A program made the translations under genes and the position numbers. Below are positions 40,925-61,658 of a DNA stretch of 64,000 bases, piece after piece. The stretch lies in NCBI GenBank assembly GCA_913051775.1, contig CAJXCL010000003.1, positions 3,492-67,491 on the forward strand. The letters run 5' to 3'. Origin of the DNA: an uncultured Nitrospirota bacterium. GTDB lineage: Bacteria > Nitrospinota > Nitrospinia > CAJXCL01. The notes below the pieces were generated by a model, which saw nothing but the letters and a program-made list of their open reading frames with translations, was not told the DNA's origin and ran no database searches. The stretch's first letter is position 1. Each line of letters starts with the position of its first letter.

Positions 40925-42109
40925 ATGCCAATGGCTGTACTAAGGATAATCAGTATCAGCAGACGCGGAGATATCCCCGCATTTCATACCCCATGGTTGA
41001 TAAACAGACTGGGGGAAGGATATTGTCATTTTCAGACCCCTTACGGAGGGAAAATTCGAGAGGTTTCCTTAAAACCTGAAGATTGCGACGGCCTGGTATT
41101 CTGGACTCGAAATCCTTTTCCTCTGTTTAAGTACATTAATGAACTGAAAGATCGTGGGTATTGTTTTTATTTCCATTTTACAATTACCGGTTATCCAAAT
41201 CCTTTAGAATCACACACGCCTCCTCTCTTAAAGTCAATCGAACGATTTATAAACCTGTCGGAAAAAATAGGGTCGGAAGCTGTTCACTGGAGATATGATC
41301 CTGTTATCTTGAGCAGCCTGACTTCGGAAGCCTTTCACATAGAGAATTTTTCTTTTATAGCAAATAAACTCAAAAAAAGTACAGGGATATGCACTATTTC
41401 TTTTATCCAATTTTATGAAAAATCCCGTGGTAATTTTAAAAAAATCACTGAACAGCACGGAATTCGGTTTGACAATCCTTCTATGGAAAGAAAGATAAAA
41501 TTGGCAAAAACTTTGAAGGGAATAGCGGCAAAAAACGGAATAAATCTCAGGAGTTGTTGTGACAATTCCTTGCTGTCCGCGGGCATTCTGAAAGGAAGCT
41601 GCGTTGGCCCTGAATATCTTTCACTCATAAAGCGGCAAGTTGCCGCATCCACCATTAGGTATGGAAAGCCGAATTGGACGGCTTCTAGAGGAAAGCCGCC
41701 CGAAGGGTTGAGGCCATGGAAGGCAGAGCTAAGCTCAGCTTTGCCGATAATTAAATGGAGCTACCGCACCAACAAGCAAACAGAAAATTCTTTTAAGCTT
41801 TGCATAAGGCACTGTAAAAAACAAGAACTAACAGTGCCTAAAAAAAAGAAGCTTTTACAGTGTAATATTATAAAAACTGACTCCTATGGTAACTGGGAAA
41901 AAAGACCAACAAGAAAGGGGTGCGCCTGTTTCGAATCGGTTGATATAGGGACTTATGAAACCTGCACTTTCGGTTGTTGTTACTGCTATGCCACGCGCAG
42001 CAGAGAATCCGCGTTAAAACATCTTAAAAACTATGATAAAAACGACTCAATCCTTGTAAGACCCAAAAAATTTAACAATAAAAATATACGATTTACTAAT
42101 GCCGATTGA
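40925..42109 (+). CDS. DUF1848 family protein carrying an in-frame repeat insertion
   Basis: ISISRRGDIPAF, VFWTRNP, FTITGY, WRYDP and C.C..S.DIGTYETCTFGCCYCYA motifs; about 80 extra codons derived from repeat family A. Confidence 0.85.
   Translation: MPMAVLRIISISRRGDIPAFHTPWLINRLGEGYCHFQTPYGGKIREVSLKPEDCDGLVFWTRNPFPLFKYINELKDRGYCFYFHFTITGYPNPLESHTPPLLKSIERFINLSEKIGSEAVHWRYDPVILSSLTSEAFHIENFSFIANKLKKSTGICTISFIQFYEKSRGNFKKITEQHGIRFDNPSMERKIKLAKTLKGIAAKNGINLRSCCDNSLLSAGILKGSCVGPEYLSLIKRQVAASTIRYGKPNWTASRGKPPEGLRPWKAELSSALPIIKWSYRTNKQTENSFKLCIRHCKKQELTVPKKKKLLQCNIIKTDSYGNWEKRPTRKGCACFESVDIGTYETCTFGCCYCYATRSRESALKHLKNYDKNDSILVRPKKFNNKNIRFTNAD
41630..41876 (+). repeat. Dispersed multi-hairpin repeat family A, copy 1 (inside the DUF1848 CDS)
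   Basis: GCGGCAAGTTGCCGC...GGTATGGAAAGCCGAATTGGACGG...CCGCCCGAAGGGTTGAGGCCATGGAAGGCAGAGC...AAGCTTTTACAGTGTAATATTATAA; ends approximate. Confidence 0.85.
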
Positions 42110-42172
42110 CGAATAAAAAAAATAATTTACAAACTGCACATTTTTAATCTCAAATCTAAAACCTAAAATCAT

Positions 42173-42347
42173 AAAGCGGAGAGGCTCCTCAACCACAATT
42201 CGGCATGGAGAGCCGAACTGGACGGATGTTTTTGCAATCCGCCCGAAGGGTTGAGGCCATGGAAGGCCGAAATCAAATGGAGCTTCTGCTCCGGTGAGCA
42301 AAAAAAACTTGTTCAAAAAACAAGCTTTTATATAGTGATAGTATAAA
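42173..42347 (+). repeat. Repeat family A, copy 2
   Basis: AAAGCGGAG...CAACCACAATTCGGCATGGAGAGCCGAACTGGACGG...CCGCCCGAAGGGTTGAGGCCATGGAAGGCCGAAATCAAATGGAGC...AAAAAACAAGCTTTTATATAGTGATAGTATAA. Confidence 0.85.
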
Positions 42348-42399
42348 TCGTCGATTAGTTGCAATCGAATTGAGAAATTTTAGCCGCAATATTAGAAAA

Positions 42400-43128
42400 T
42401 CATAACATTAAAAATATCATCAAAGTTAATGCTTCTATTATCTCATTGATAAATCCAAAATGGTCGCCGGTAATCTTTCCAAATGAATTTAATAAAAATT
42501 GATAAATCATGGTTGTAAAAATAGCAATTCCAATTAAAGCAGTTAAGCCTATAATATCAAAAAGATAGATTACGATTAAGCAAGGTAGGATAGATGACAG
42601 GATGAAATGTTTTTCTTTTATCTGTTTCTGAAATTTACTCCCCAGGCCGATATGTTTCATCTGGATGCTATAAAGAATAGTCAGCACCATTGTCCAACGG
42701 CTTGCCATAGGAAACACCAGGAGGGCGTATATCTTTGTACTTTGTTCGATAAAGGCGATTGAATTATATTTTAATAATACAAGAAAGATTACAGATATGG
42801 CACCCATGGTTCCTATATGGCTGTCTTTCATGACCTTCAGTTTTTCTTTCGGGGATTTTACACATCCCAGTCCATCAAATGTATCGGCAAAACCATCGAT
42901 ATGCAGACCCCTGGTAATTAGGGTTAAGAAAGCAACCTGAATAATAGCGGTAATATCAATCGGTAGAAATGGAGAAAGGCAGTATTCCAACCCTGCCAAC
43001 CCCGCCCCGAGAGTAAGACCGACTAAAGGGAAGTAGATAGTAGATTCAGCCAATAATTCCTGTCGAAAGCTTTTTACTTTTAAAGGTAGTATGGTAAGAA
43101 ACTGAAAAGCAGTAATAATTTTATTCAT
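42400..43128 (-). CDS. cobS: Adenosylcobinamide-GDP ribazoletransferase
   Basis: AFQFLTILP, YFPLVG, GLHIDGFADTFDG, MKDSHIGTMG and GKITGDHFG motifs. Confidence 0.92.
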   Translation of the reverse strand: MNKIITAFQFLTILPLKVKSFRQELLAESTIYFPLVGLTLGAGLAGLEYCLSPFLPIDITAIIQVAFLTLITRGLHIDGFADTFDGLGCVKSPKEKLKVMKDSHIGTMGAISVIFLVLLKYNSIAFIEQSTKIYALLVFPMASRWTMVLTILYSIQMKHIGLGSKFQKQIKEKHFILSSILPCLIVIYLFDIIGLTALIGIAIFTTMIYQFLLNSFGKITGDHFGFINEIIEALTLMIFLML

Positions 43129-43134
43129 TGGGTT

Positions 43135-43550
43135 AGAAAGGTTTGAGATTTACACCACATTTCTGAGCCGCCTTCTATAATATATTATCCTGTGTTGCTA
43201 ACGAAACTCCTTTAAGCATTGCAATTTCAGATAGGAGGCATCGTAAGATGACAAATTGTGCTGACGAGCAAGTGAAAGTATATCCTCCATAGCTCTATTA
43301 GGAGCACTTTCGCCGATAACAACCGGAAGTGTGTGCAATAATTCGACAAATTGCAGAGACTGGGTTTTTGTAATACGCTTATTACATTCGCTCGTAAGGA
43401 TTACATTTGCTAGTTCCAGCGTTCAAATGGAAGGTACTAAAGCATGCCCATTTGAAAACCAGTCCAAAACTACATTTGTAAACTTATTGGCTTCATCTTC
43501 GAAACACCAACTCATTGCTACAGAACAACCTAAAACAAAATCTTTAAATA
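43135..43550 (-). pseudogene. VapC/PIN toxin pseudogene
   Basis: Manual translation gives KDFVLGCSVAMSWCFEDE...VPSI*TLELANV...LSSYDASYL, then a frameshift and LATQD. Start codon lost, first catalytic Asp changed to Gly, internal stops. Confidence 0.75.
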
Positions 43551-43787
43551 TCTTCTTCCTTCATTAATTATTTTTTGTATTGATAGTCCGCCCAACTTTT
43601 TGCCTTTTCTAAAAGATCGAATCTTTTCAATTACTAACTTTGGATCAGCCTTTCCTCCGGGTGCTATTGGAACAAGTATGGCAACAGGAGTACCTTTTCT
43701 GGTTATAGAGATTCGTTCACCACGAGATACTTTATCCAAAATCCTTTCGAAATGTGTTTTTGCTTCATAAAAACCAACTTTTTTCAT
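43530..43787 (-). CDS. Phd/YefM family antitoxin
   Basis: VGFYEAKTHFERILDKVSRGERISITRKGTPVAILVP motif. Confidence 0.88.
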   Translation of the reverse strand: MKKVGFYEAKTHFERILDKVSRGERISITRKGTPVAILVPIAPGGKADPKLVIEKIRSFRKGKKLGGLSIQKIINEGRRYLKILF

Positions 43788-44261
43788 AAAAGAACTTCCT
43801 CTAAAGACTGGTCTGTAGACAAGTCTTTAGGATTTTGTGTTTGGTGTCAATCTCTATTAAAAAAGTGAAGGGATTGAGAATATACAATATAAAGCACAGA
43901 TTTTTATAAGTCAAAACTATGATATTAACTTAATCTTGCATGATAAATTTTTTAAAAATTGTTAATCATAATATTCATAACCCAATAGATTAAGTTTTTT
44001 TAGGGATAATATTCTCGGAAACACATATAACTTCTAAGAAAAAACTCCTTTTAAAAATTTATCATGCAAGATTGAGGTATTAACTCATTGTCCTTAACCA
44101 TGAATATGTGTTATGAGTATAATATATCTGAACCAGTCATAACCTGTTCGTACTGTAATAAAGAAATTCCTCTCACTGAAGCAATTTCCCATAAAATGCT
44201 GGAAAAACTGCAAAAGGAATTTTAGGGTCAGGCTAAAAAAATAGAAAAAGATGCAAAATAA

Positions 44262-44370
44262 ATTAAAAGGATCGTTCATAACATTAGCGGGATGTATGGA
44301 GATATGGAAGGAATCATCGGCGCCTCTTTACCTCAAATAAAAGTTTGGAATTAAAAAAATTGTCTGAAGG
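44262..44370 (+). pseudogene. Probable DUF2130-family C-terminal remnant
   Basis: RIVHNISGMYGDMEGIIGASLPQI, then a frameshift and LEL; recognised from memory of the family C-terminus. Confidence 0.4.
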
Positions 44371-44390
44371 AGACAATTTGGATCAGATCA

Positions 44391-44855
44391 GTGATGACGG
44401 AAAAATGGAGGGGGAGCATTAAGGAATCAGAAAAAATAAAATTATTATTTTTGTGTACAGGGAACTCCTGCAGAAGCCAGATGGCAGAGGGATGGACGCG
44501 GCTTCTGAAGAGTAGTGAAATCGAATCCTATTCGGCAGGTATTGAAATTAACAGCTTAAACCCTCTTGCGGTCAAGGTTATGGCTGAAGCGGGTGTTGAT
44601 ATTTCTCGACACAAATCTACACATGTGGATGAATTAAAAGACGCTCAATTTGACTTCGTTGTTACACTTTGTGGTCACGCGCAGGAACATTGCCCGCTAT
44701 TCCCCGGAAAAACAAAAACAATCCACGTTGGGTTTGATGATCCGCCGAAACTGGCGGCAAACGCTAAAACCGAAGAAGAAGCGCTTAACCATTACCGAAA
44801 AGTACGTGATGAAATTAAAACTTTTGTTGGACAACTTCCCGGGGTATTATCATGA
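44391..44855 (+). CDS. arsC: Thioredoxin-dependent arsenate reductase (LMW-PTP fold)
   Basis: LFLCTGNSCRSQMAEG, VTLCGHAQEHCP, FDDP and VRDEI motifs; start uncertain (the best SD, GGAGG, precedes an ATT). Confidence 0.9.
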   Translation: MMTEKWRGSIKESEKIKLLFLCTGNSCRSQMAEGWTRLLKSSEIESYSAGIEINSLNPLAVKVMAEAGVDISRHKSTHVDELKDAQFDFVVTLCGHAQEHCPLFPGKTKTIHVGFDDPPKLAANAKTEEEALNHYRKVRDEIKTFVGQLPGVLS

Positions 44856-45328
44856 TGAATTTACCGAGAAGGACAAGGATTATCGCGATGATCGGAACCG
44901 TAACAGAATCACCGGAGATGCTGGAAAAATTGATAAAGGCAGGAATCAATATAGTCCGCATCAATATGTTGCACGCAAATGAAAGCGGCCTGTGTTATGA
45001 CGGATCAACTTGGGGCCAAAGCCCTGGTGATATTTACCCGGTCAGGCAATACAGCGCGTTACGCGGCATGGTTGCGCTAGGAAAAGGCCACCATATATGC
45101 CTTTATCGATGATGCTAAATTATATCATCAAATAACTCTCAATTGGGGAAACGACCCTTTTCTCATTCAGTTTGATGACGATGAACCATCGAATACAGTA
45201 GGTGCAGCATTGGAAGTAATGAAACAAAGTGGTCGAATAAAAACAGAAAGAGACAATTGTTCTGGTGACCGAAGTCAGGGTGAAGAACAAAATAGTTGCT
45301 ACCGTCTAGATGAAAAAAGTGGAATAAT
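44852..45328 (+). pseudogene. pyk: Pyruvate kinase, large internal deletion
   Basis: RRTRIIAMIGTVTESPEMLEKLIKAGINIVRINMLH (PK N-terminus) joined directly to GAKALVIFTRSGNTARY...IYAF...LNWG (PK C-domain), with an in-frame TAG and frameshifts. Confidence 0.85.
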
Positions 45329-45364
45329 GTTTTGTTTAAATTTGAGAATTAGCATACTATAATT

Positions 45365-45550
45365 TGAAAGTGTTTTTAGCTAGCGCATTCCATGCGATCT
45401 TGCAGAGCTACCAAGCTAAGTTTGGCTTTGTCGCGGACTTAGCGGGCGATACCCCCCCCCTTAATTCCCTCTAACAAGGAGGGGCTCAGGGGGTGTATAT
45501 ACTCTGCACTGAAGATTCCCTGCAGTCTTGCTGCAGGGGGAGCTTTAAAT
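45365..45550 (+). repeat. Repeat family B, copy 5, with a nested second hairpin repeat
   Basis: TGAAAGTGTTTTTAGCTAGCGCATTCC...[ATACCCCC...GGGGGTGTAT 45449-45497]...ATACTCTGCACTGAAGATTCCCTGCAGTCTTGCTGCAGGGGGAGCTTTAAATT. Confidence 0.75.
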
Positions 45551-45565
45551 TTCTGGGGAGAAACA

Positions 45566-46447
45566 ATGAAAGGAATAATATTAGCAGGTGGTTCAGGTAC
45601 CCGCATGTATCCTATTACCCGTGTTGTCAGCAAACAACTGCTCCCTGTGTATGATAAACCCATGATTTATTATCCCTTGTCTGTCTTAATGCTGGCAGGT
45701 GTCAAAGATGTTCTCATAATTTCCACTCCAGCAGATTTACCGAAGTTCCGGGACCTTCTTGGGGATGGCTCTCAATGGGGTATCTCTTTATCTTATGCCG
45801 AACAACCCCGTCCAGAAGGATTGGCTCAGGCCTTCATTATTGGAAAATCATTTATAGGCAATAAAAAGGTTGCTCTTGTTCTTGGGGACAATATATTTTA
45901 TGGACAGGGTCTTCCCAAAATTTTCAGTAGATGCGCAAAACTCGAAAAAGGAGGGATTATTTTTGGTTATTTAGTGCGAGACCCCTGGCGGTATGGTGTT
46001 GTCAGTTTTGATAAAAACCTCGATGTTGTTAGTCTCGAAGAGAAGCCTGAAAATCCCAAGTCAAAATATGCTGTACCCGGTCTTTATTTTTATGACAATG
46101 ATGTGGTGAAAATAGCGGAAAATCTTAAACCTTCTGCCCGTGGAGAGTTGGAAATTACGGATGTAAACTTGGAATACCTTCGCAGGAGAGAGCTAAAAGT
46201 GGAACTTTTAGGACGCGGATTTGCCTGGCTTGACACAGGTACCTTTGAGTCTTTACAGCAAGCTGCCAATTATGTGCAAGCGGTTCAGGTGCGGCAGGGC
46301 CTGAAGGTTTCGTGTCTAGAGGAAATCGCGTTTAATCTCGGTTATATAGATGCGAAACAGCTAAAAAAACTCGCCGCTGAAATGCTGAAAAGTGGTTATG
46401 GACAGTATTTAATGGATGTATTAAAGGAAGCAGAAAAAGGAAAATAA
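45566..46447 (+). CDS. rmlA: Glucose-1-phosphate thymidylyltransferase
   Basis: [41 protein letters not shown] and AWLDTGT motifs. Confidence 0.97.
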
Positions 46448-46453
46448 AAAACA

Positions 46454-47065
46454 ATGACATTAAAACTCATTAACACATCGATATCCGATGTTCTTTTGCT
46501 TGAGCCGAATGTGTATGATGATTCCAGAGGGTTTTTTTTAGAAACTTTTCACCAAAGTAAATATACCGATGTGGGAATTGATAAAACTTTTGTGCAGGAC
46601 AACTATTCCCACTCAAAGCAGGGAACCTTGAGAGGATTGCATTATCAACTCCTTCATCCGCAGGGGAAATTGATCTTTGTGTTGAGAGGAGAAATATTTG
46701 ATGTGGCGGTTGATATTCGGCGAGGTTCTTCTACGTTAGGACAATGGGTTGGAGCCAATCTCTCAGCAAAAAACAAACGCCAGATATATGTACCGGAGGG
46801 GTTTGCTCATGGTTTTTGCGTATTGAGTGAATCCGCTGATGTCATGTACAAATGCTCGGACTTCTATGATACTGAAGATGAGTATGGAATTTTTTGGTCA
46901 GATGAGACGATTGCTATTAACTGGCCTGTTAAAACACCGATTCTCTCTGGAAAAGACAGCAAGTTTCAAAAATTTACTGAGATCCCTGAGAAAGATTTGC
47001 CAATTTATGGCGGGGCCGACGGGACTCGAACCCGCAACTTCCGGCGTGACAGGCCGGTGCTCTAA
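46454..47065 (+). CDS. rmlC: dTDP-4-dehydrorhamnose 3,5-epimerase; C-terminus reads into antisense tRNA-Asp
   Basis: DSRGFF, FVQDNYS, LRGLHYQ, DVAVDIRRGS, GFAHGF and YKC motifs. Confidence 0.95.
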   Translation: MTLKLINTSISDVLLLEPNVYDDSRGFFLETFHQSKYTDVGIDKTFVQDNYSHSKQGTLRGLHYQLLHPQGKLIFVLRGEIFDVAVDIRRGSSTLGQWVGANLSAKNKRQIYVPEGFAHGFCVLSESADVMYKCSDFYDTEDEYGIFWSDETIAINWPVKTPILSGKDSKFQKFTEIPEKDLPIYGGADGTRTRNFRRDRPVL

Positions 47066-47084
47066 CCAGTTGAACTACGACCCC
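47008..47084 (-). tRNA. tRNA-Asp(GTC)
   Basis: GGGGTCGTAGTTCAACTGGTTAGAGCACCGGCCTGTCACGCCGGAAGTTGCGGGTTCGAGTCCCGTCGGCCCCGCCA; full cloverleaf with encoded CCA. Confidence 0.97.
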
Positions 47085-47129
47085 CCCCAATTTTTATTCA
47101 ATATAAACCAATAGTTATGAAACCACGAA

Positions 47130-47321
47130 TTACCCAGAAGATTTCCGGTTGCTTGTTGCTGCAGGAAGCTTCAAATGAAAGGTAGTATACCACAAAAGTA
47201 ATGTGCCGCAAGTAGAATTATGCATTATCATTTGTTCTATTCCTGTATAAAGCGGCTTGATGTACAGAGTGTTTAGCCTGTTTTCTTTCCCGGAATAATA
47301 CAGCAGCGAAGAAAACGACAA
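47130..47321 (-). pseudogene. Possible histidine kinase HATPase C-terminal remnant
   Basis: QMIMHN..GTLLL..TTFHLKLP resembles the end of HATPase_c domains; weak. Confidence 0.25.
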
Positions 47322-47419
47322 TCAATAATATGATTATTTGCAGAAAAATCATCCACCTTCTTGGGAGGCCTTTTTTTCAGTCTCCGATAGGCGATATTGT
47401 TGAAGCTGAGTTGAGGGAT

Positions 47420-47872: not shown

Positions 47873-48093
47873 CTAAACCTAAAAAAAAACCATTTTAAAC
47901 CCTAATATACAATTTTATAATTCAAAATTCTATCATTTTATACAAGTTTAGAGTTAGACCTACCGGGTCTCTTTCTCTTGCAGGGAAAAATTCGATGGGT
48001 ATTTCAGTAGACTTAAAACCTGGAATATCGTTACAAACATACCTTTAAGTGGGTTTTGGCCATGAAGATTTTATCACACACTGAAGATGGTTT

Positions 48094-48832: not shown

Positions 48833-49465
48833 TTAATATGTAAATTGAACCAACTTGCGTTTTTCATTATCTTTAATTATTAATCGCTGTTTTTTAGATA
48901 TAAACTCGTTGTGCCACGTTTCTATTTCAAATTCTCCTTTAGGCACTTTTTTAATGGTAAAGTTTCCTTTTTTATCAACACTTGAAAAAAAGGGATTCTG
49001 AAGAACTAAAATAAAGCCCCTTAATTCCTGATGAATATCACACAAAAGCATAACTTCCCCCCCCTCGGAGAACTTAATAGGACCATATTTGGTGTTTGCC
49101 GGAATTCCAAAGTTGAATGAAATTGGACCACCTGTTGCTGTATGCAGGTTATGAAAGTGTGGATCTTCATTGGAAAAAATTACCTCTCTCTCTCTTGCGA
49201 TGGGAAGCACCTGAGGAATAACCTGATTATTCTTTTGAACATTCAATACTGTTTCTTTGGGTAAGCTAAAGAGTTTATTATCAACATATTTAATGTATAC
49301 GACAAAGTTCTCGAATTGATCTATACGATTTGAAACAATTCTACCTTCAACAGTAGCCGACAGGCACTCGGGAACAGCTCCCAGCCCTGGCATAATAACA
49401 GTAAAAATGATTAGTAATATTCGACTTATATGTTGCTTCATAAATAAAGCGATAAGTTGCCGCAA
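48833..49465 (-). CDS. Exported cupredoxin-like plus carboxypeptidase-regulatory-like domain protein
   Basis: Signal peptide; F.NEDPHFHN, CDIH (Cu-ligand-type C-x2-H) and GNFTIKKVPKGEFEIETWH motifs. Confidence 0.75.
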   Translation of the reverse strand: MRQLIALFMKQHISRILLIIFTVIMPGLGAVPECLSATVEGRIVSNRIDQFENFVVYIKYVDNKLFSLPKETVLNVQKNNQVIPQVLPIAREREVIFSNEDPHFHNLHTATGGPISFNFGIPANTKYGPIKFSEGGEVMLLCDIHQELRGFILVLQNPFFSSVDKKGNFTIKKVPKGEFEIETWHNEFISKKQRLIIKDNEKRKLVQFTY

Positions 49466-49600
49466 TCACAACTTGGCATGGAGAACCAAATTGGACCGAC
49501 ATACTTGCGGTTCGCCCGAAGGGTTGAGGCTATGGATGGCAGAGCTAGGTTTTGCCGAAATCAAATAAGACTGCCGCCCTGGAGAACCAACAAAAATAAA
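49446..49600 (+). repeat. Repeat family A, copy 3
   Basis: AAAGCGATAAGTTGCCGCAATCACAACTTGGCATGGAGAACCAAATTGGACCG...TCGCCCGAAGGGTTGAGGCTATGGATGGCAGAGC...TTTGCCGAAATCAAAT...CCGCCCTGGAGAACCA. Confidence 0.85.
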
Positions 49601-54357: not shown

Positions 54358-54386
54358 AGTATATCTATCGATAAATTAAGTGTCAA
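54358..54386 (-). promoter_or_regulatory. Sigma70 promoter of tRNA-Val
   Basis: TTGACA, 17 nt spacer, TATACT; about 35 nt upstream of the tRNA. Confidence 0.75.
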
Positions 54387-54397
54387 GGTTAATTTAA

Positions 54398-55171
54398 TTA
54401 ATATATCTTGATTATTTTTTTGATCATAAAATCAGCTTCGTAAATAGATTCTGAATCCTTAATTACTTCTCCCCTTAATGCCATGAATTTTCCTACGTAC
54501 TGCTTCAGATCCTCCTGTAAAGAACCTTTGATATAATAAACTCTTTTTTTTCTTTTGCTTTTATTGATTAATGCAAGCTGTTTCCCTTGGTTTTCCCAAT
54601 TTTGAAGTGTGCCATATATAGTTTTGAAAGGTTTTTTGCTGGATTTTTTAATTTTTTTCTTAATACTCTCTGAACTTAAAATTACCGGTAAATCACTCTG
54701 TTTAACCACATAAAATCCATAATGTATTGATTTAAAAGGTGGAATGCTGTATTCCCTGTTGCTATGAAAATAAAATGCTTTCACTTCAATCTTTTCTTTG
54801 CTCTCATGCTCAAGTATTTTTACTTTATCTATTTTGTAGTTATCAGTTGGATGAGAAAGAATCGCGATAACCATTCTTGATGAGAAGTCGTTTCTGAGTA
54901 ATTGTCGTTCGAGACGTAGTGCTTTGTTATGTGTTGTAATGTTCCGAATTTTTCTGAATTTGTTAAATAAATAGGTAACACCATCTTTTGAACGGATGAC
55001 ACTAATGTATGGAGGCTGGCTTAAGTTGGTTCCCTTAACAGTGGTTATGAAATTTCCCTGGTATTTTTTGATAAGCCTGATTTTTTTTGGGGAGGCATGG
55101 AGAAAGGTAGCATGTAAAGAGACAAAAAGCATGATGGTTATAATTTTTAAACCCGATTTTCTACTCTTCAT
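54398..55171 (-). CDS. Exported, very basic hypothetical protein (possible PrcB-like domain)
   Basis: Signal-like N-terminus, 257-aa open frame; MVIAILSHPTDNYKID...HYGFYVVKQSDLPV is loosely PrcB-like. Confidence 0.6.
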   Translation of the reverse strand: MKSRKSGLKIITIMLFVSLHATFLHASPKKIRLIKKYQGNFITTVKGTNLSQPPYISVIRSKDGVTYLFNKFRKIRNITTHNKALRLERQLLRNDFSSRMVIAILSHPTDNYKIDKVKILEHESKEKIEVKAFYFHSNREYSIPPFKSIHYGFYVVKQSDLPVILSSESIKKKIKKSSKKPFKTIYGTLQNWENQGKQLALINKSKRKKRVYYIKGSLQEDLKQYVGKFMALRGEVIKDSESIYEADFMIKKIIKIY

Positions 55172-55294
55172 GCTAATATTACAGAATATTGGGGAATTGG
55201 AATAGTGGATCTTTTTGATTTAAGATGTCAGATTGCAGGCTTTGGATAGTAGATTTTAATTCTAAAATCCAAGATCGTCAATTAGTTTTTTTAT

Positions 55295-56380
55295 TCACTC
55301 TATCCATTCTGCAGTAAAAATATTTGTGTCGCTATTTTTTTTATTGAACCTGTTTGAACCAAAAATTAAGTGCCTGCCGTCGCGCGTAAACATTGGAAAT
55401 CCATCGAACGTTTCATTGAAGGTTATTTGCTCAAGCCCGGTACCATCAATATTAATAGTATAAAGGTCAAAGTTTCTTCCTTTTTTATCGTTCACATTTG
55501 AAGAGAAGATAATCCTTTTGCCGTCAGGATGAAAAAACGGAGCGAAACTTGCTTTGCCAAAATCAGTGACCTGCTTCATATTTTTTCCATCCGCGTCCAT
55601 TATATAAATTTCTAAAGCTGTAGGCCGAAAAAGGTTGTTTTTAACTAGATCATCATAATCTTTTAGTTCTTTTTCTGTTTTGGGCCTGCTTGCCCTGAAA
55701 ACAATTTTTGAACCGTCAAAAGAGAAAAAAGCGCCTCCGTCGTAGCCTTTTAAAAAAGTTAAACGCTTTTGATCACTGCCGTCGAGGTTCATCGTATATA
55801 TTTCAGGGTCATTGTCTCGCATGGATGTGAAGACTATTTTGTCCCCTATCGGAGAGAGGGTAGCCTCCGCATCATAGCTGGGTGTATCGGTTAAACGTTT
55901 CAAGTTTGAGCCATCCACATTAGCCAAAAAAATATCAAAAGAGTTATAGAGTTTCCACACATAGCCTTTTGACCTATCCGGTGGTGGTGGACAGTTGCTG
56001 TCGACAACGTGAGTAGATGCGTAAAGGATTTTTGTATCGCCAGGCAAAAAATAAGCACAAGTTGTTCTTCCTTTACCGGTAGAGACCATTCTTTTACCGC
56101 TACCGTTAAGGTTCATTGTGAATATCTGATCGCATTTTAAATCGCCTGTTGTCGCTTGGTAGATTAGTTTCTTTTCATTAAATGATAAATAAGCCTCGGC
56201 ATTTTCCCCTCCATCAGTAAGCATTTTTATGTTTTTCAAATGCTTTTCCCCCTTTATATGAAAAGGATCGTCGAGCGCAGGCTCGGAAAAACTGTAATTA
56301 AAGGCTGTCGGCATGACGACGGAAAGTATAACAACTAGGAAGGCTAATATTTTTGATTGTTTTGATAACTGCATATTCAA
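55295..56380 (-). CDS. TolB-like PD40-repeat beta-propeller protein
   Basis: GENAEAYLS, YDAEATLSP.G.KIVFTS, GYDGGAFFS.DG, APFFHPDG and FDGFPMF repeats; signal peptide. Confidence 0.92.
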   Translation of the reverse strand: MNMQLSKQSKILAFLVVILSVVMPTAFNYSFSEPALDDPFHIKGEKHLKNIKMLTDGGENAEAYLSFNEKKLIYQATTGDLKCDQIFTMNLNGSGKRMVSTGKGRTTCAYFLPGDTKILYASTHVVDSNCPPPPDRSKGYVWKLYNSFDIFLANVDGSNLKRLTDTPSYDAEATLSPIGDKIVFTSMRDNDPEIYTMNLDGSDQKRLTFLKGYDGGAFFSFDGSKIVFRASRPKTEKELKDYDDLVKNNLFRPTALEIYIMDADGKNMKQVTDFGKASFAPFFHPDGKRIIFSSNVNDKKGRNFDLYTINIDGTGLEQITFNETFDGFPMFTRDGRHLIFGSNRFNKKNSDTNIFTAEWIE

Positions 56381-56540
56381 ATTAAAAAACTTTGGAATAA
56401 TAATTAATAGCCATGAAATGGCGTTACTAAAATATTTTACCCTTCCAAGGGTAAAATATCATTAATGATTCTTTTTTTCTAAAGGACTAAACGATTTTGA
56501 AGCAAAGTATACTTCAAATTATGAAAATAATCATCTTTTT

Positions 56541-56667
56541 AATTTTGACTTTCCATGCCCTCGACCCTTCGGGCGGCTTTCCATTGGGGAACCGTTCAAT
56601 TTTATCATTGTGATAAAGTTATGACTATCAGTTTTCCTTGCCGAATGGTGGTTGAGGTCCTGCCGCA
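56541..56667 (-). repeat. Repeat family A, copy 4 (degenerate)
   Basis: Minus strand GCGGCAGGACCTCAACCACCATTCGGCAAGGAAA...GGAAAGCCGCCCGAAGGGTCGAGGGCATGGAAAG. Confidence 0.75.
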
Positions 56668-56720
56668 CTGAGAAAAATAATTATTTTAATTCTCTCTGAG
56701 GTTTTTGCATTACAAGTTTA

Positions 56721-59700
56721 TTACCTCGCCTCTACTTCCACACTCACTATTTTTTCATTTCCTTCTCGCAGAAAAGTAATAACCACAGTATCTCCCGGTT
56801 TCATTGATTTCAAGAAATCGGAAAAAGAGCGTAAATTGTCAATTTTATTTCCATTAACGTGAGTTAGCATATCATCTTTTTGTAATCCAGCTTTTTCAGC
56901 AGGTGAGTCCGGTAAAGTGCCGATAATTTTAATGCCTTTTCCTTCAAAAGCAAAATCAGGAATTGTACCCAAACTAATTTTTCTCCCTTGATCCGGCTCT
57001 GCTGATTTCCTGGATGCGAAACCTCTTTGTGTGTCAAGCAATGAAGTCAACTGCTCCTCACGGCCGGCTAAATACTCAACAGCTTCTTTTAGTACCGACG
57101 CAACTTTTACCAGCCCTGCCTTATCCACCTTGTCAATCGTATCAGTAGGACTGTGATAATCGAGGTGCGGCCCGCTGAAAAACTGCACTGCCGGAACCCC
57201 TGCATCGAGAAAACTCTTCTGATCGCTTGAGCCAAAATCTTTGGAGACCGCTTCTATTGGAACGCCGGTAACATAACTCGCTCCCATAAAAATATGAATC
57301 CACTCTCGTGCTGAACCTGTGCCAAAAATCATGAGTTTTTTTTTGCCCAGCCTGCCTACAGTATCAAGATTTAGGACTCCTATGATTTTATCTACTGGAA
57401 ATTTTTTTTCGATCTTTACATAGTGTTTTGAACCCAGTAGTCCTGCTTCTTCTCCGGTAAAAGCCACAAAAACTACAGTGCGGTCTGGTTTCCATCTTTT
57501 TCCCAATATTTGAGCAAGTTCCAACAGTATAGCCACACCGCTGGCATTATCATCCGAGCCCGGATGAATTTTTCCTTTATTACCCTGTCTTACATCCGGC
57601 CATCCAAGGCCTAGATGATCGTAATGAGCGCTTAAAACTACGCTTTGCCCTTCCAAATCAGGATTGCTACCACGAATGACACCTACAACGTTTTTTAAGG
57701 CTATATTTTGGTTAAATTCACCATTTTTTTCATTCCATTCCTGAAAATAGCTTCCTTTTTTACCACTTATTGTTTCCAAGCCTGCCTCATTAAACTTGCT
57801 GGCAATGAAATCCGCTGCTTTATCCAATTCCGCCGTCCCTAAACCGCGTCCCTTCATTTTTTTATCAGCAAGAAAACTAATGATACTTGTCATCCTTTTT
57901 GCTGAAAATACCGCCGGCAAATAAGCAAGTGCCTGTCTTGGTACCAGCTTTGTAACAACTCCCACTGGTGTGGTTTCCGCTCTTTGTAAAGGAAGAGAAG
58001 ATGGAATTTCTTTGTTGTCAGATAGCTCAATCGGTACGGACATGGGTGAATTCAACGTAGGCCACCGGCCCTTTAAAACAATAGACGGTTCATCCCCTTC
58101 GAAGGCAAGATAGCTGTATTTGCCGTAATGCGGTAGTTTGCGTCCGAGCCCTGGAATGGCTGAAGCATTATCCGTTGAGACCCATGCCAATGCAAAGTCA
58201 GGTTCATCAGGGTGTCTGGTTGTAAATATTGTGGAATGATTTTTTCTTTTTATTTCGTTTTCTCCAATGCTTACCCCAGAGTTATTGATAGAAACATCAT
58301 AGCCCTTCATTGCGTCAATAATTTTTGGATTAAAAAGATTTTCTTTGCCGAATAACCATACGGTACGGTCTGCAGGAAGTTCATTTATTTCATTATCCAG
58401 TTTAATTTCCATTTGTCTTGACGGCGACTTTTGCCAGGATTCGGCAACTTTGCGGTATTCATTGAGAATATCTTTGGAAGCTAATGAAGGAAGGATGATC
58501 AGGACTTTATCCGAACCGAACGCTCGGGAAAGGGCAGGGGGGGTCTCATACCTGTCTAACTGCCGAAAAAGATCGAATTCAGGGTCAACTTTCAAACGAA
58601 GAGGTTTTGAAGGAACATGAAAGGAAACTTCCAAATGCCTGTCGTTCATTAACACTCTAGTTTGGTACGTCTCTTCAAAATCTTGCAGGGTAACGGTTAT
58701 CGGTATACGCAATGTATAAGCCGGAGCTTCTTGAATCTGCTCCAAAACAGCAGTAAGCTGATACCCCTTTTTATCAGCTTGTGCTGAGGCATGGTTGATA
58801 CGTATTTCAGGAGCTCCTGTTTGCTTTATCCACTGGTTAAATTCAATCTGTAAATCTTTTCCTGAAACTTCTTCAAAAACTTCTCTCAAATTTTCAAATG
58901 CTGCGCGTTTAAACTTAAACTCTTGATAAAATTTCTGCAAACCCTTAATAAAAACTTTGTCGCCTAACTGCAGACGAAGCATATGAAAAAACATCAGGGT
59001 TTTGCCGTAGCCTACAGCTTCTGTGGCTGAACTGTGGCGTGAGCGAAACTCTGTTAATGGAAAATCCTTACTCTCTGCCGCATAATCCGTGTATTTCTGC
59101 AAAGTCGTGCGGCGGTATTCCTTTCCCTGTCCCCGTTGTTCTTTAATAAGATGGTCGGAAAGATAAGCGGTAAGGCCTTCACCCCAGTTTCCAGAGCTCA
59201 AATCCACAAAGACTCCATTAGCCCACCAGTTATGCAAAATTTCGTGCGGATAAGAAGAATGCAAAATGAATGGAAAGCGGATGATTTTAGAACCTAGTAA
59301 AGTAAAGGAAGGCATCCCGTAACCGGTCTGCCAAAAATTTTCTATTAACGCAAATTTTTTGTATGGATAAGGACCTAACAACTTGCTGTACATTTTTAAA
59401 TATTGAGATCCTGTCTCTAAATATTTGTTAGCTAATTTTTCATCAGGATTGCGCAGGAAAACCAATGTTTGTACAGACCCGGCCTGTTTACTATATTCAG
59501 TAAATTTTCCGGCAATAAGATAAATCTCATCCTGCGGGTACTGTGATTTCCAACCGGCAACAATCGATTCTTCCCTTGTTCGTTCTCCCTGGCTGATTGC
59601 CTTCCATCCCTGTGGCAAATGCACTTTCATTGAAAAAGTCACCAGGTCATCGCTGAACCACGGATACCAGTAACTTGAAGAGGCAAGGTATATCCCGTTG

Positions 59701-60158
59701 CTGGAAATGATTCCAGAAGTTTCGCTGAAACTGCGGTCGCTTTCTTCCTTCTGTTTTTGCAAAGGACTATGTATTTCTCCATTGTATTTAACAATAAAAG
59801 TGCGCACATCGGCAGGAAGGGCAACTATGTAATGCTCCAACATTTCATTATTTTGCTTGAAGATTGAATTAGAATTGGTTTCAGACTGTGAAGATTGTGC
59901 TTTATCTTCATAGTGGGTAATTGCTACACCTTCTGTGTTCGATACAGGCTGAAGTCCTTTATGAATAATGAAATGCACCTCACCACCGCCAACATTGAAA
60001 AAAGAATTCGGAAGGGTAATTTTATCTTCAATATCTATCCAGTGCTTCTCAGGGTCAATCACAACTTTCATGTTGTGGTGTATGTTTTCCTGGGCGTAGA
60101 GAGAGACAGGAAGGCATATAAGAGCAAGAAATTGGAATATAGCTAATAAACGTTTCAT
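56721..60158 (-). CDS. Exported multidomain peptidase: M1 aminopeptidase plus M28 plus PDZ
   Basis: HEILH...GEGL (M1 HExxH-18-E); SAHYDHLG, DDNASG, GEEAGLLGS and YHSPTD (M28); C-terminal PDZ (SPAEKAGLQKDD). Confidence 0.9.
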   Translation of the reverse strand: MKRLLAIFQFLALICLPVSLYAQENIHHNMKVVIDPEKHWIDIEDKITLPNSFFNVGGGEVHFIIHKGLQPVSNTEGVAITHYEDKAQSSQSETNSNSIFKQNNEMLEHYIVALPADVRTFIVKYNGEIHSPLQKQKEESDRSFSETSGIISSNGIYLASSSYWYPWFSDDLVTFSMKVHLPQGWKAISQGERTREESIVAGWKSQYPQDEIYLIAGKFTEYSKQAGSVQTLVFLRNPDEKLANKYLETGSQYLKMYSKLLGPYPYKKFALIENFWQTGYGMPSFTLLGSKIIRFPFILHSSYPHEILHNWWANGVFVDLSSGNWGEGLTAYLSDHLIKEQRGQGKEYRRTTLQKYTDYAAESKDFPLTEFRSRHSSATEAVGYGKTLMFFHMLRLQLGDKVFIKGLQKFYQEFKFKRAAFENLREVFEEVSGKDLQIEFNQWIKQTGAPEIRINHASAQADKKGYQLTAVLEQIQEAPAYTLRIPITVTLQDFEETYQTRVLMNDRHLEVSFHVPSKPLRLKVDPEFDLFRQLDRYETPPALSRAFGSDKVLIILPSLASKDILNEYRKVAESWQKSPSRQMEIKLDNEINELPADRTVWLFGKENLFNPKIIDAMKGYDVSINNSGVSIGENEIKRKNHSTIFTTRHPDEPDFALAWVSTDNASAIPGLGRKLPHYGKYSYLAFEGDEPSIVLKGRWPTLNSPMSVPIELSDNKEIPSSLPLQRAETTPVGVVTKLVPRQALAYLPAVFSAKRMTSIISFLADKKMKGRGLGTAELDKAADFIASKFNEAGLETISGKKGSYFQEWNEKNGEFNQNIALKNVVGVIRGSNPDLEGQSVVLSAHYDHLGLGWPDVRQGNKGKIHPGSDDNASGVAILLELAQILGKRWKPDRTVVFVAFTGEEAGLLGSKHYVKIEKKFPVDKIIGVLNLDTVGRLGKKKLMIFGTGSAREWIHIFMGASYVTGVPIEAVSKDFGSSDQKSFLDAGVPAVQFFSGPHLDYHSPTDTIDKVDKAGLVKVASVLKEAVEYLAGREEQLTSLLDTQRGFASRKSAEPDQGRKISLGTIPDFAFEGKGIKIIGTLPDSPAEKAGLQKDDMLTHVNGNKIDNLRSFSDFLKSMKPGDTVVITFLREGNEKIVSVEVEAR

Positions 60159-60323
60159 AATGTTCTAAGTAGCTTTAAGCAGTCAGGTACCAGCATTCAC
60201 CAAGAATGGTTTTTATTAAGTTCTGTTCTTAGCTTTCAGCTGATTGCTTAATGTTATTGTTATGTTTGTAGGATTATACCATCTGTGCTATAAATTTTTT
60301 AGAATATAATTTAAATTGCAGGT

Positions 60324-61295
60324 TTGATGCATAAATCCAGTCATCCAAAATACTTATATTTTGTTGGGAAAGGCGGTGTGGGAAAATCAACATGCTCTGC
60401 TTCAACCGCACTGGCATTAGCTGAAAAAAAGAACAAAACCCTCATCGTTTCGCTTGACCCTGCCCATAACTTGTCCGACATATTTGAAACGTCTCTCGAA
60501 GATAAGCCGAAAGAGATAAAAGAAAACCTGTACGCCATGGAAATAAACCTGGAACAGCGAATGGAAAAGTCCCTAAAAAAAACCATCGACATGATGAAAA
60601 ACTTATACACATACCTCAATGTTATTAATCTTGAAGGAATGTTTGATACCTTGCGGTTTTCTCCGGGGATGGAGGAATACGCTGTCATCTTTGCATTAGA
60701 AGATATTTTTGAAAGTTACAGGAATATGGATTTTATCATATTCGATACGCCTCCAACAGGACTTACTCTGAGGTTCTTTGCCCTGCCGCATATATCTGTT
60801 CTGTGGATTGAAAAATTGTCGACATTGAGAAAGAAGATTTTAAGCAGGCGTGATTCTTTAAAAAACATACTTGGTGAAAAATACCATGATAAGGAATTAC
60901 CTTCTACTGTTAAGGACGATTCGGTTTTTAAGGAACTTGTGAGTTTTGATGGGCGGTTAAAAACATTAAAAAATCACTTTAGCTCTAAAGAAGACAGTTT
61001 GATGTTTCTGCTCTTAAACCCGGACAGGCTTTCTTTTAGCGAAGGACGAAAGATAATAGCGGCGTTTGAAAAATTCTCCCTGCCTCTGAATATGGTAATT
61101 ATTAATAAAAGCGGACTTTATAATGACAATACCTCTGATGAATTATCTCAATTTATGGAGAGTTTTTTTGCAGATGTGAAAAAAAAGTTCAATGGCCTTA
61201 AAACCATGGAACTACCGTTTAAAGACAGCGGGACATTAAGCAGAAAAGACATGATGACATTTGGTGAAAATGTTTACAGAAATGTGCCACTATGA
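60324..61295 (+). CDS. ArsA/Get3-like ATPase, single domain
   Basis: GKGGVGKST, SLDPAHNLSD, SPGMEEY, FDTPPTG and LNPDRLS..E motifs; only one Cys. Confidence 0.92.
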   Translation: MMHKSSHPKYLYFVGKGGVGKSTCSASTALALAEKKNKTLIVSLDPAHNLSDIFETSLEDKPKEIKENLYAMEINLEQRMEKSLKKTIDMMKNLYTYLNVINLEGMFDTLRFSPGMEEYAVIFALEDIFESYRNMDFIIFDTPPTGLTLRFFALPHISVLWIEKLSTLRKKILSRRDSLKNILGEKYHDKELPSTVKDDSVFKELVSFDGRLKTLKNHFSSKEDSLMFLLLNPDRLSFSEGRKIIAAFEKFSLPLNMVIINKSGLYNDNTSDELSQFMESFFADVKKKFNGLKTMELPFKDSGTLSRKDMMTFGENVYRNVPL

Positions 61296-61564
61296 TTCCA
61301 AAGGAAAACATTATCAAAATTCTTAAAAAGATCAAAGACCCGGAATCAGAACAGTCTCTATACGATCTTCAAATCGTGAAGCATATAGATTATAAAGAAG
61401 AGGAAAAAGAACTGATAATTACCCTTGATTTCAACAGGAGAATGCCGAACTGTATAGGCTGCAAACCGGTAGCTTGGATGGTGCAGAAGAAAATTGCAGA
61501 ATATCTCGAAAATGATTTTTTTGAATTTGAAGAAGTAAAACAGATAGATTTTAAATACTCATAA
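61292..61564 (+). CDS. DUF59/FeS-assembly-P-like small protein with CxxC
   Basis: LKKIKDPE....LYDLQIV motif; PNCIGC; 4-nt overlap with the ArsA gene. Confidence 0.7.
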   Translation: MIPKENIIKILKKIKDPESEQSLYDLQIVKHIDYKEEEKELIITLDFNRRMPNCIGCKPVAWMVQKKIAEYLENDFFEFEEVKQIDFKYS

Positions 61565-61658
61565 TACGGCATGTTGCCGCAACCACATAGGCTTCCGCCC
61601 TGGAGAACCATCAAAAAAACTTTTTCAAAAAACAAGTTTTTACAGAGCAATAGTATAA
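61565..61658 (+). repeat. Repeat family A, copy 5 (internally deleted)
   Basis: ACGGCATGTTGCCGCAACCACA joined to GCTTCCGCCCTGGAGAACCA...AAAAAACAAGTTTTTACAGAGCAATAGTATAA. Confidence 0.75.

Follow-up and report, generated by a model that had tools for sequence, protein, structure and literature searches.

A previously undescribed family of mosaic, hairpin-rich and probably mobile repeats in marine Nitrospinota

Overview of family A

The repeats of family A are DNA that moves or is insertion-polymorphic. The family is dispersed in multiple copies, has both filled and empty sites, is flanked by direct repeats that follow the target, keeps its stems through covariation and survives in frame within four genes. 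It is previously undescribed and closest to the MITE/REP/RPE kind of repeat, and we regard it as probably a set of lineage-restricted mobile DNA elements that are small, non-coding and non-autonomous and are assembled as mosaics.

In the 64-kb window, the whole stretch of DNA analysed here, the five repeat copies listed in the preliminary description are real and lie about where it placed them (Table 1). They are not five copies of one unit, as it had held, since module content differs from copy to copy; the mosaic, nested build and the in-frame insertion into a DUF1848 gene are both absent from that description. Its statement that the repeat belongs to no known family holds: Rfam 15 over the window returns two tRNAs only, leaves family A unmatched even at E <= 10, and gives best matches in 41400-42600 at E >= 1.1, to unrelated families. 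Family A likewise has no match among plasmid and phage sequences, and no ORF is conserved across its copies. As the description had also stated, no cognate transposase accompanies the element in the window, where a scan of about 58 ORFs found no transposase or integrase.

Beyond the window, about 49 distinct further copies occur in marine Nitrospinota MAGs and metagenomes, together with one in a MAG labelled Proteobacteria. The exact core motif is present at 18 genomic and 41 metagenomic loci, several per Nitrospinota MAG, and the covariance model of the core yields 78 matches, 49 of them distinct. The genes around the copies are housekeeping genes only, and orientation relative to neighbouring genes is unbiased (16 same/same versus 14 opposite/opposite). 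Of the three outcomes that the preliminary description had named as counting against it, a known-family match, no covariation and no further copies, none was obtained.

Table 1. Family A copies, modules and host gene in the 64-kb window
Feature	Position	Strand	Basis
DUF1848 host gene of copy 1, 394 aa, with in-frame 81-codon insert	40925-42109	+	Pfam
Copy 1, left direct repeat ATAAA, 5 bp	41627-41631	+	read from sequence
Copy 1, body	41632-41869	+	sequence, covariance model (core), tail search
Copy 1, hairpin A	41632-41646	+	
Copy 1, core, including extra 20-nt hairpin at 41725-41744	41650-41756	+	
Copy 1, hairpin E	about 41756-41770	+	
Copy 1, GCATAAG hairpin module	about 41796-41843	+	
Copy 1, tail	41853-41869	+	
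Copy 1, right direct repeat ATAAA, 5 bp	41870-41874	+	
Copy 2, including both ATAAA repeats (42171-42175, 42343-42347)	42171-42347	+	
Copy 2, body: A, core (42194-42278), E, A/T hairpin, tail	42176-42342	+	core 100.5 bits, model R1
Copy 3: left ATAAA (49444-49448), hairpin A, core, hairpin E	49444-~49600	+	sequence, model R1
Copy 3, core with short extra hairpin	49467-49566	+	
Copy 3, hairpin E	49564-49584	+	
Possible diverged AT-rich core, in tandem, directly downstream of copy 5	56429-56523	-	R1 E = 1, not significant
Copy 5: A-like hairpin, degenerate B, second B, C, D; no E or tail	56537-56670	-	
Copy 5, core	56537-56623	-	model R1, 56.7 bits, E = 5.6e-12
Copy 4, including ATAAT repeats (61561-61565, 61655-61659)	61561-61659	+	
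Copy 4, body: A, E, A/T hairpin, tail; core absent	61566-61654	+	
Lone hairpin module GCCACTCTCAGCGGGGC	62386-62402	+	

Modular architecture

The outer unit spans about 90-240 bp and holds its modules in a fixed order and orientation, beginning with a G+C hairpin A at the 5' end and continuing through AACCA, hairpin E, an A/T-rich hairpin and a T run to the tail TTTTACAGnGTAATAGT. The tail is shared by three copies, as previously described (41853-41873, 42326-42346 and 61638-61658). Hairpin A retains a stem of 5-6 bp through at least seven different stem sequences, and the element has fixed points at which further small hairpins may or may not occur. The core is optional and, when nested, follows the AACCA of the outer unit. 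The core, the 20-nt hairpin and a 47-nt hairpin come and go with just 2-4 nt of microhomology at their junctions, and part of the module differences may reflect deletions rather than insertions. Terminal inverted repeats are lacking: GCGGCAAGTTGCC, at the left end, has nothing in common with ACTATTACACTGTAAAAG, which is the right end read as its reverse complement.

The individual copies differ in setting as well. Copy 2 lies between the convergent genes DUF1848 and CobS; its fold z-score is -2.9 when treated as RNA and -4.5 when the minus strand is folded as DNA. Copy 3, which lacks the tail, is antisense to its two neighbouring genes. The possible core at 56429-56523 combines a B-like hairpin with a D-like hairpin, ACCC-TTGGAA-GGGT, and is suggested solely by its adjacency to copy 5. 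The lone module GCCACTCTCAGCGGGGC also occurs within elements of L001, L008 and L033.

This small-hairpin mosaic with variable module content is what host-maintained, REP/BIME-like sequence would present, that is, sequence not actively mobile whose modules are homogenised by gene conversion and serve chromosome or mRNA roles, for example in protein binding, at transcript ends or in stability. Separate GTAG-type REP-like hairpins do adjoin some cores. However, none of the modules A, B, C, D and E has the conserved GTAG or CGTC head of the 20-40 nt REP palindromes, and all keep one orientation; the single module order and orientation contrasts with the alternating REPs of BIMEs, and orientation with respect to transcription is random. 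We judge this explanation decidedly improbable, and further evidence on it is given with the insertion sites and the in-gene copies below.

Conserved core and stem covariation

The core, of about 85 nt, is ordered as hairpin B, hairpin C, CCC-GAA-GGG, UUGA and hairpin D. Its conserved motif CGCCCGAAGGGTYGAGG occurs four times in the window against 0.06 expected, and at least four occurrences arise in 0/100 shuffles; covariance model R1 recovers four cores in the window with E-values between 1e-11 and 1e-22, and the best of the remaining matches has E = 0.096. The core also behaves as an independent unit, being found alone, in head-to-tail tandem, directly after a tmRNA gene and in the Proteobacteria-labelled MAG. 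A 30-nt block is nearly invariant across copies and identical in that MAG, where stems B and C differ yet still pair.

The compensatory stem changes reported from the window are real for two stems across 49 distinct copies, and the proposal that structure is under selection is borne out by the covariation of stems B and C in this larger alignment. Specifically, 17/22 pairs in these stems are changed on both sides, and 91% of cells are paired. None of 500 shuffles reaches the observed level, and sliding the pairing partners collapses the signal. The modelled strand carries 56 G-U against 23 A-C pairs, a mild single-strand bias, and the consensus folds to -12.7 kcal/mol on the plus strand versus -8.8 on the minus strand.

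As previously noted, ATGGA recurs in two loops, here assigned to hairpins B and D. Among the 49 distinct copies, GGA is present in the B loop of 37, at the B-C junction of 38 and in the D loop of 47, and D-loop variants change at the N position alone (CAUGGAUG, CAGGGAUG, CAAGGAUG). CsrA and RsmE favour a C-ANGGAN-G hairpin, as documented by SELEX and the RsmE literature, and the D hairpin, C-AUGGAU-G, is a hairpin of exactly this type. These loops, the confinement of D-loop change to the N position, the 30-nt block that stays constant in the Proteobacteria-labelled MAG while stems B and C vary but pair, the mild strand bias and a unit end consisting of a hairpin followed by a T run would all suit a functional structured RNA, formed by the core or by the whole A-core-E-hairpin unit, that rides on the repeat or spreads as one. 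In its most concrete version it would be a CsrA/Rsm-type protein-titrating module displaying three or four GGA motifs in loops. Against it, no Rfam family matches, Csr/Rsm families included, no promoter-like site occurs within the element or at its left end, orientation is random relative to neighbouring genes, the tail hairpin or the core is missing from many copies, and four GGA per 86 nt is just about twice the chance level. A search of some 0.6 Mb of related DNA, a small sample, gave no csrA, and a literature search returned no paper pairing carbon storage regulator with Nitrospin*. We consider a structured RNA unlikely.

Insertion sites and flanking repeats

Insertion is evident from empty sites and flanking direct repeats, in agreement with the mobile-element interpretation first proposed. 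The site of copy 1 is empty in L064 (cactTTAAAaactg); among the DUF1848 orthologs, P0004 and P0005 are without the insert, and P0002 and P0003 carry the insert minus the core. The site of copy 2 is empty in L062 (aaatcGTAAAtcgtc), and for a copy in another genome L001 is filled (ATAAG...ATAGG) and L023 empty (ATGGG). L010 compared with L017 represents a replacement at the site rather than a clean insertion. Full copies are flanked by a direct repeat of 4-5 bp with the consensus ATAAA that varies with the target, reading ATAAA/ATAAA in most copies, ATAAT/ATAAT in copy 4 and ATAAC/ATAAT in L027; target-following is seen in three informative cases. The target of copy 4 is the stop/start overlap TAATG of two genes, with TAA now at 61562-61564 and ATG at 61658-61660. 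Because in 3/3 empty/filled comparisons the empty site is one or two letters away from either flanking repeat, ATAAA could instead be borne by the element, through site-specific recombination or as a target mimic. Filled and empty sites with a duplicated target mean that insertion occurs, which speaks against REP/BIME-like maintenance. To our knowledge, no bacterial IS family produces a target duplication without terminal inverted repeats.

The absence of inverted repeats would be expected of a palindrome-associated transposable element (PATE). Such an element is non-autonomous, belongs to the IS200/IS605 type and relies on a Y1 HUH transposase for its movement as single-stranded DNA; its subterminal hairpins are binding sites, and insertion occurs 3' of a fixed pentanucleotide mimicked by the right end. 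Family A is similar in having like hairpins on the same strand near both ends, in direct orientation (B resembles D, GGCATGGAGAGCCGAA versus GGCCATGGAAGGCCGAA), and short specific junction sequences: the left flank of cores is almost always NCA, the core 3' end is ATCA, and cores join head to tail with ...ATCA followed directly by CAATT... at the junction. The mild single-strand bias is also in keeping with such a route. However, in the few informative cases the flanking repeat tracks the target (ATAAT/ATAAT; ATAAG/ATAGG versus the empty ATGGG) and resembles a true duplication, and IS200/IS605 elements are not known to make target duplications. Moreover, hairpin A begins right at the left end and leaves no space for a guide, and tblastn of about 0.6 Mb of related DNA gave no match to IS608 TnpA or to an E. 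coli RAYT, and no Y1 transposase was seen there. A PATE origin is highly unlikely.

Duplication without inverted repeats could also arise by SINE-like spread via RNA, in which transcription is followed by reverse transcription with priming at an A/T-rich nick and by a short duplication of the target. The A-rich targets (TTAAA, GTAAA, ATAAA) and A-rich 3' part of the element, the resemblance of hairpin A followed by ACCA to a trimmed T-arm with a CCA end, and the core that directly follows the CCA of a tmRNA gene are compatible with it, but the duplication length is fixed at 4-5 bp, the end is neither poly(A) nor a simple repeat, 5'-truncated and 3'-truncated copies both exist, and no reverse transcriptase was seen. 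We know of no such mechanism in bacteria and consider it extremely unlikely. For family A as mobile DNA, the searches turned up neither an autonomous copy nor any candidate for a transposase, a recombinase or a reverse transcriptase, and no IS whose ends would mark it as the parent.

Copies inside protein genes

Copy 1 interrupts its DUF1848 host gene in frame. Its body plus one repeat amounts to 243 nt, or 81 stop-free codons, the Pfam DUF1848 match falls into two stretches parted by the insert, and close homologs of 306-312 aa are without it. Four in-gene hosts (DUF1848, Ppx-GppA, a methyltransferase and RsmD) carry inserts in the same element frame, and in Ppx-GppA the Pfam domain is likewise split in two. 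All four in-gene copies are sense and stop-free, three being in frame with host sequence on both sides, and most intergenic copies have stops in this reading frame. The shared sense orientation and stop-free frame therefore point to translation through the insert. A self-splicing intron was considered for copy 1 and rejected, there being no Rfam intron match and all four in-gene copies being sense in one stop-free frame.

Identity between orthologous in-gene copies is 93-98% over the E and tail part, compared with 85-93% over the flanking coding sequence and 73-86% at the third codon positions of that sequence. This suggests constraint or gene conversion after insertion and is not predicted by pure selfish decay. 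Evolution slower than at host-gene synonymous sites would favour a structured RNA, and conservation exceeding that of the flanks would favour REP/BIME-like maintenance; a B-stem variant, CGTCAGGATAGACG, found both in L037, where the copy is orthologous, and in L033, where it is not, suggests conversion and lends support to the latter. The location of some copies within genes, where they are read through, counts against both.

Comparison with known repeat families

Rickettsia palindromic elements (RPEs) are small, lineage-restricted hairpin repeats, mostly non-coding, a subset of which lies in frame within conserved protein genes (PMC2229807, PMC3184786). Family A likewise adds an in-frame peptide and leaves the gene intact, in four hosts and one frame, RPE-like in-frame element being a functional class and not a homology group. 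Its host phylum is unrelated and its sequence presumably unrelated to RPE-1 to RPE-8, it is mostly intergenic with stops in that frame in most copies, and it is modular and nested with a 4-5 bp flanking duplication.

Bacterial MITEs measure 90-250 bp, lack coding capacity and are multi-copy; they duplicate their target site, are polymorphic for filled and empty sites and now and then lie in frame within genes (PMC5896051, PMC10969869). Family A matches Correia/NEMIS, RUP, ERIC, Coxiella QMITEs and Tn3-derived TIMEs in size, non-coding nature, copy number, duplication, polymorphism and occasional in-frame insertion, but differs in lacking terminal inverted repeats and a parent IS among the sequences found, and in its internal hairpins of fixed order and orientation with a nearly invariant 30-nt block. 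REP/BIME sequences are mosaics of short G+C-rich hairpins with variable modules and compensatory stem changes, associated with RAYT transposases (PMC2817692, PMC3333891). Family A is also a hairpin mosaic with compensatory stem changes, yet its hairpins are without the GTAG/CGTC tag and alternating orientation, its target is duplicated and some copies lie in genes.

With the protein-sponge sRNAs CsrB/RsmY/RsmZ, family A shares several GGA in hairpin loops, one exact C-ANGGAN-G hairpin and a terminal hairpin with T run; it differs in having no Rfam match or promoter-like site and in being dispersed in both orientations, also inside genes. The pneumococcal BOX, reviewed in PMC3184786, is a repeat of modular A-B-C style in which the number of internal modules varies and a stable fold is predicted. 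Family A is equally modular, variable in module number and predicted to fold, but unrelated in sequence, with a nested core containing an invariant block and clear insertion sites. None of the tested families accommodates a target duplication in the absence of inverted repeats, a nested core that contains an invariant block, and loops with GGA.

Discussion

A trans-acting enzyme, presumably encoded elsewhere in the genome, would recognise the invariant block together with the hairpins, probably in single-strand fashion on one of the two strands, and the element would insert at ATAAA-like sites to give a 4-5 bp target duplication on both sides. Stem covariation would follow from propagation being limited to source copies with an intact fold. 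In-gene copies would be the rare ones to have survived there, divisible by three in length and free of stops in the reading frame.

It is also conceivable, although quite unlikely, that the core is a working nucleic-acid module rather than mere scaffolding, either the recognition or guide structure of a new mobility system or a portable protein-binding RNA. The mobility version would create target duplications without inverted repeats, possibly via RNA; the RNA version would be CsrA-like, with GGA loops planted beside and inside genes. Such a role would explain why MAGs labelled as two phyla share an identical 30-nt block and why E and tail evolve slowly in orthologous in-gene copies.

Nitrospinota are the main oceanic nitrite oxidisers, and their genomes are known almost solely from MAGs. 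In such assemblies, the dispersal of a hairpin-rich element accounts for spurious small ORFs and split Pfam domains, and probably for contig breaks as well, and family A offers markers of strain-level variation. The in-gene copies show conserved enzymes to be tolerant of inserts about 60-80 residues long. The mobilising enzyme or a binding protein, if found, could bring to light a new route of mobilisation or a regulatory module that is portable.

Copies of family A and architecture of the element

All five family A copies claimed in the preliminary description are found in the window sequence, and the tail that it described as common to three copies is present in three. The most conserved stretch, CGCCCGAAGGGTYGAGG, is observed four times against 0.06 expected in 64 kb, and the shared blocks of the family are independently picked up by a repeat search of the window. 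R1, a covariance model built on the central part (86 positions, 22 pairs), matches four window cores with E values of 1e-11 to 1e-22, the next match having E = 0.096. Directly downstream of copy 5, an AT-rich stretch shows a core-like hairpin layout with a B-like stem and ACCC-TTGGAA-GGGT (R1 E = 1), which may be a tandem copy in decay or belong to a distantly related subfamily.

The outer unit opens at its 5' end with hairpin A (GCGGCAAGTTGCCGC is one example). AACCA and hairpin E (GGAGCTTCCGCTCC or GGGCTTCCGCCC) come next, then a hairpin made of an A run and a T run, and last the tail TTTTACAGnGTAATAGT; the core is positioned after AACCA. The core itself starts with helix B (CAATTCGG / CCGAATTG), whose loop is in most cases A(A/U)GGA, and the junction UUGGAC leads on to helix C; CCC-GAA-GGG and UUGA follow, then helix D (GGCC-AUGGAW-GGCC) and GAWAAUCAAA. 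Extra hairpins are optional and occupy fixed points: AGAGCTAAGCTCAGCTTTGC lies within the 3' strand of D, a hairpin of 47 nt separates B from C, GCCACGCTSAGCGGGGC is a third, and the tail holds one or several GCATAAG hairpins. In the A-rich element tails of four related loci (L005, L013, L014 and L027), GCATAAG modules stand in tandem, each ending in CTAAA(AA), and may be separate mini-insertions sharing a TAAA preference. Some copies carry a B–C fusion, by deletion between two GGAAAGCC repeats; lone cores also occur, as do direct head-to-tail cores in which ATCA is followed at once by CAATT (L022, L012, L033).

At L006 the CCA end of a tmRNA gene, which encodes the tag peptide ANDYEYALAA, directly abuts the start of a core. 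At L039 that core and the DNA downstream of it recur, preceded by no more than the last ~28 nt of the tmRNA; the arrangement resembles the distal end of an island that integrated into ssrA in that strain. Additionally, several cores adjoin hairpins of a second family, whose stem contains GTAG or GCAG (CCCCGTAGCAGAGCTACGGGG and variants); its likeness to GTAG-tagged REPs hints at a RAYT-type system in the genomes carrying it.

Positions of family A copies and other features in the window and in related loci (L numbers)
Feature	Position	Strand	Observation
Core, copy 1	41650-41735	+	R1 match
Core, copy 2	42194-42278	+	R1 match
Core, copy 3	49467-49566	+	R1 match
Core, copy 5	56537-56623	-	R1 match
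Copy 4	61566-61654	+	Outer parts present, without core
Core-like AT-rich stretch	56429-56523	-	
Lone hairpin module	62386-62402		
HNH endonuclease and adjoining weak DUF1643 match	62611-63721	-	Just past copy 4 and the lone hairpin module
Small HNH protein	63344-63721	-	125 aa
Inverted repeat	43923-43956 / 44049-44082		34 nt, 88% complementary, arms 92 nt apart; long AT-rich intergenic region; unrelated to family A
157-aa ORF	37545-38018	-	Two ~77-residue repeats
DNA copies of the 157-aa ORF repeats	37676-37800 / 37907-38031		125 nt, 73% identical
86-aa ORF	44852-45112	+	Matches first ~40 positions only of pyruvate kinase barrel domain; probably a gene fragment
tmRNA gene and core	L006:4761-5201		
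tmRNA end and core	L039:8663-8790		
GTAG/GCAG hairpins	L009:3828-3870		
GTAG/GCAG hairpins	L041:2042-2130		
GTAG/GCAG hairpins	L018/L051/L058		
GTAG/GCAG hairpins	L001:3340-3411		
Empty DUF1848 allele with 12-nt gap	L060:3001-3921		Compared with L064:594-1532

Distribution and search for a known family

An exact 24-mer of the core retrieves 18 loci among species-representative genomes, with nine in Fu_MAG_119 (Nitrospinota) and six in binchicken_co201_466; an unclassified MAG accounts for three and a pond MAG with the label Proteobacteria for one. A 23-mer of the core retrieves 41 loci from metagenomes, most of them marine; among these, L046 was rejected as a chance match within G+C-rich coding DNA. 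Searching these relatives with the covariance model, as had been proposed, yields further copies, giving 78 cores of which 49 are distinct, and the exact motif is absent from some. The window DUF1848 protein is 98% identical to a protein named Nitrospinota by NCBI, which places the window in that phylum.

Family A does not belong to a known family. The proposed comparison with Rfam 15 returns no family matching the element: at the gathering score only two tRNAs are found, and at E <= 10 over 41400-42600 nothing relevant appears. Neither blastn with the element against plasmid and phage collections nor a viral contig scan gives a match, and the literature, searched by text, yielded no publication on Nitrospinota repeats.

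Base pairing and covariation of the core

RNAalifold predicts B, C, the small CCC/GGG hairpin and D. Across the 49 distinct cores, 91% of cells are paired and 17 of the 22 pairs show both-sided changes, with a covariation score of 0.253 versus 0.115 in shuffles (0 of 500 reach it); sliding the partners as a control lowers pairing to 21–55%. The compensatory stem changes first described from the window are borne out on this set, in which every B and C pair covaries. CCC/GGG and D are nearly invariable and are therefore neither supported nor contradicted by covariation. Hairpin A keeps a 5–6 bp stem across at least seven different stem sequences, and the L007 copy has B and C stems of other sequence with pairing kept, together with an identical 36-nt block.

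Evidence for a strand preference of the fold is mild: the modelled strand has 56 G-U versus 23 A-C pairs and a consensus energy of -12.65 kcal/mol versus -8.78 kcal/mol for the opposite strand, with equal mean single-sequence energies, in a test biased by an alignment that had been fitted to the plus strand. GGA recurs in the B loop (37/49), the B–C junction (38/49) and the D loop (47/49), and the base preceding GGA is the sole change among D-loop variants. The D hairpin matches the C-ANGGAN-G hairpin favoured by CsrA/RsmE, and offers a lead. A cis-acting mRNA element (leader or terminator) is rejected by random orientation relative to neighbouring genes (16 same/same, 14 opposite/opposite, 18 mixed). 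An internal or outward sigma-70 promoter (TTTACA ... TATAAA) is likewise rejected, given its 9-nt spacer and no promoter predicted in the element.

Empty sites and flanking repeats

Copy 1 lies within a DUF1848 gene whose ORF (40925-42109) reads through it. Two homologous proteins (P0004 and P0005, 91% and 88% identical overall to the host) lack 81–87 residues exactly at this copy, and two others (P0002 and P0003) have the outer unit without the core. Empty sites, sought as the preliminary description had suggested, are found in three cases and mark the element as inserted DNA. For copy 1, DNA alignment gives empty cactTTAAAaactg (L064) versus filled cactTATAAA[gcgg...gtaatatt]ATAAAaactg; copy 2 is missing in L062, with aaatcGTAAAtcgtc versus filled aaatcATAAA[gcgg...gatagt]ATAAAtcgtc; and the site filled in L001 (aaccATAAG[gcagcaag...gtaatggt]ATAGGgctctatt) is empty in L023 (aaccATGGGctctatt). 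Most full copies are flanked by ATAAA on both sides and copy 4 by ATAAT on both; L027 has ATAAC/ATAAT. We read these flanking repeats as a probable 4–5 bp target duplication at ATAAA-like sites, the empty sites differing from both repeats by 1–2 bases and the genomes compared being 10–15% diverged. There is no inverted repeat common to the element ends.

Copy 4 (window 61561-61660) occupies a former TAATG, in which the stop of a small FeS_assembly_P-like gene upstream overlapped the start of a Methyltransf_23 gene downstream; the ATAAT duplication preserves both the upstream TAA and the methyltransferase ATG. The start of the mechanically called ORF 61571-62326 falls within the element, and the true start of the methyltransferase gene is likely 61658. 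In L060, the empty DUF1848 allele is also short of 12 nt (LKTD) beside the insertion point, which could be the scar of imprecise, in-frame element loss. Insertion guided by pairing of the invariant GGTTGAGG with upstream CCTCAACC or CCTCCACC was rejected as a general rule, because the left flanks are unrelated in cores that lack hairpin A; nor does the block, which never varies, offer covariation for this pairing.

In-frame inserts and possible constraint after insertion

Besides DUF1848, three further hosts carry the element in sense and in the same frame, namely a Ppx-GppA phosphatase (L031), a methyltransferase (L025) and an RsmD-type methyltransferase (P0129). The encoded peptide reads roughly IKRQVAA-TIR-GKPNWT...PEGLRPWKAE...KWSYRS..., and the Pfam DUF1848 and Ppx-GppA matches each fall in two stretches flanking the insert. 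In most intergenic copies the same frame contains stops, with TAA arising from the common B loop TAAGGA, so that an element built to be ORF-friendly is rejected and the in-gene copies are survivors of selection rather than a design feature. The in-frame sense copies and these stops together argue against splicing out of the insert. Exhaustive phmmer with the encoded peptide gives only a handful of true matches, P0123-P0125 being rejected as low-complexity false positives, and a word-indexed protein search gives just one candidate. In an AlphaFold model of the DUF1848 protein (11 sequences) the insert has pLDDT ~25, and the conserved C-terminus is equally poor.

The orthologous pair L020/L037 shows a compensated double change in stem B with the invariant block untouched, and the whole element is no better conserved than its flanks. 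This stem B variant is also present in an unrelated L033 copy, which makes gene conversion between copies a live alternative to purifying selection. In the window, L062 and L063, whose DUF1848 copies are orthologous, hairpin A shows no differences and E plus the tail part are 93–98% identical; the flanking coding DNA is 85–93% identical, and its third codon positions 73–86%. These identities are signs of possible post-insertion constraint on the in-gene DUF1848 copies.

Mobility and relation to known repeat classes

The claim that the window holds no transposase stands: ~58 ORFs were scanned and none is a transposase or integrase, the genes found concerning cobalamin synthesis, Rnf, iron uptake, rhamnose synthesis, FUR, aconitase and similar. 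In L015, L021 and L028, the stretches between or next to copies hold housekeeping genes only, and tblastn for CsrA, IS608 TnpA and RAYT over ~0.6 Mb of related DNA, with approximate queries, gave no match. Family A resembles RPEs in its in-frame inserts, MITEs in size and duplication, REP/BIME and BOX as a hairpin mosaic, and PATEs in having hairpin ends without inverted repeats, but for every family open to testing it fails at least one of the defining features. Collectively, family A is a genuine, lineage-restricted mosaic repeat, apparently undescribed, that behaves as non-autonomous mobile DNA.
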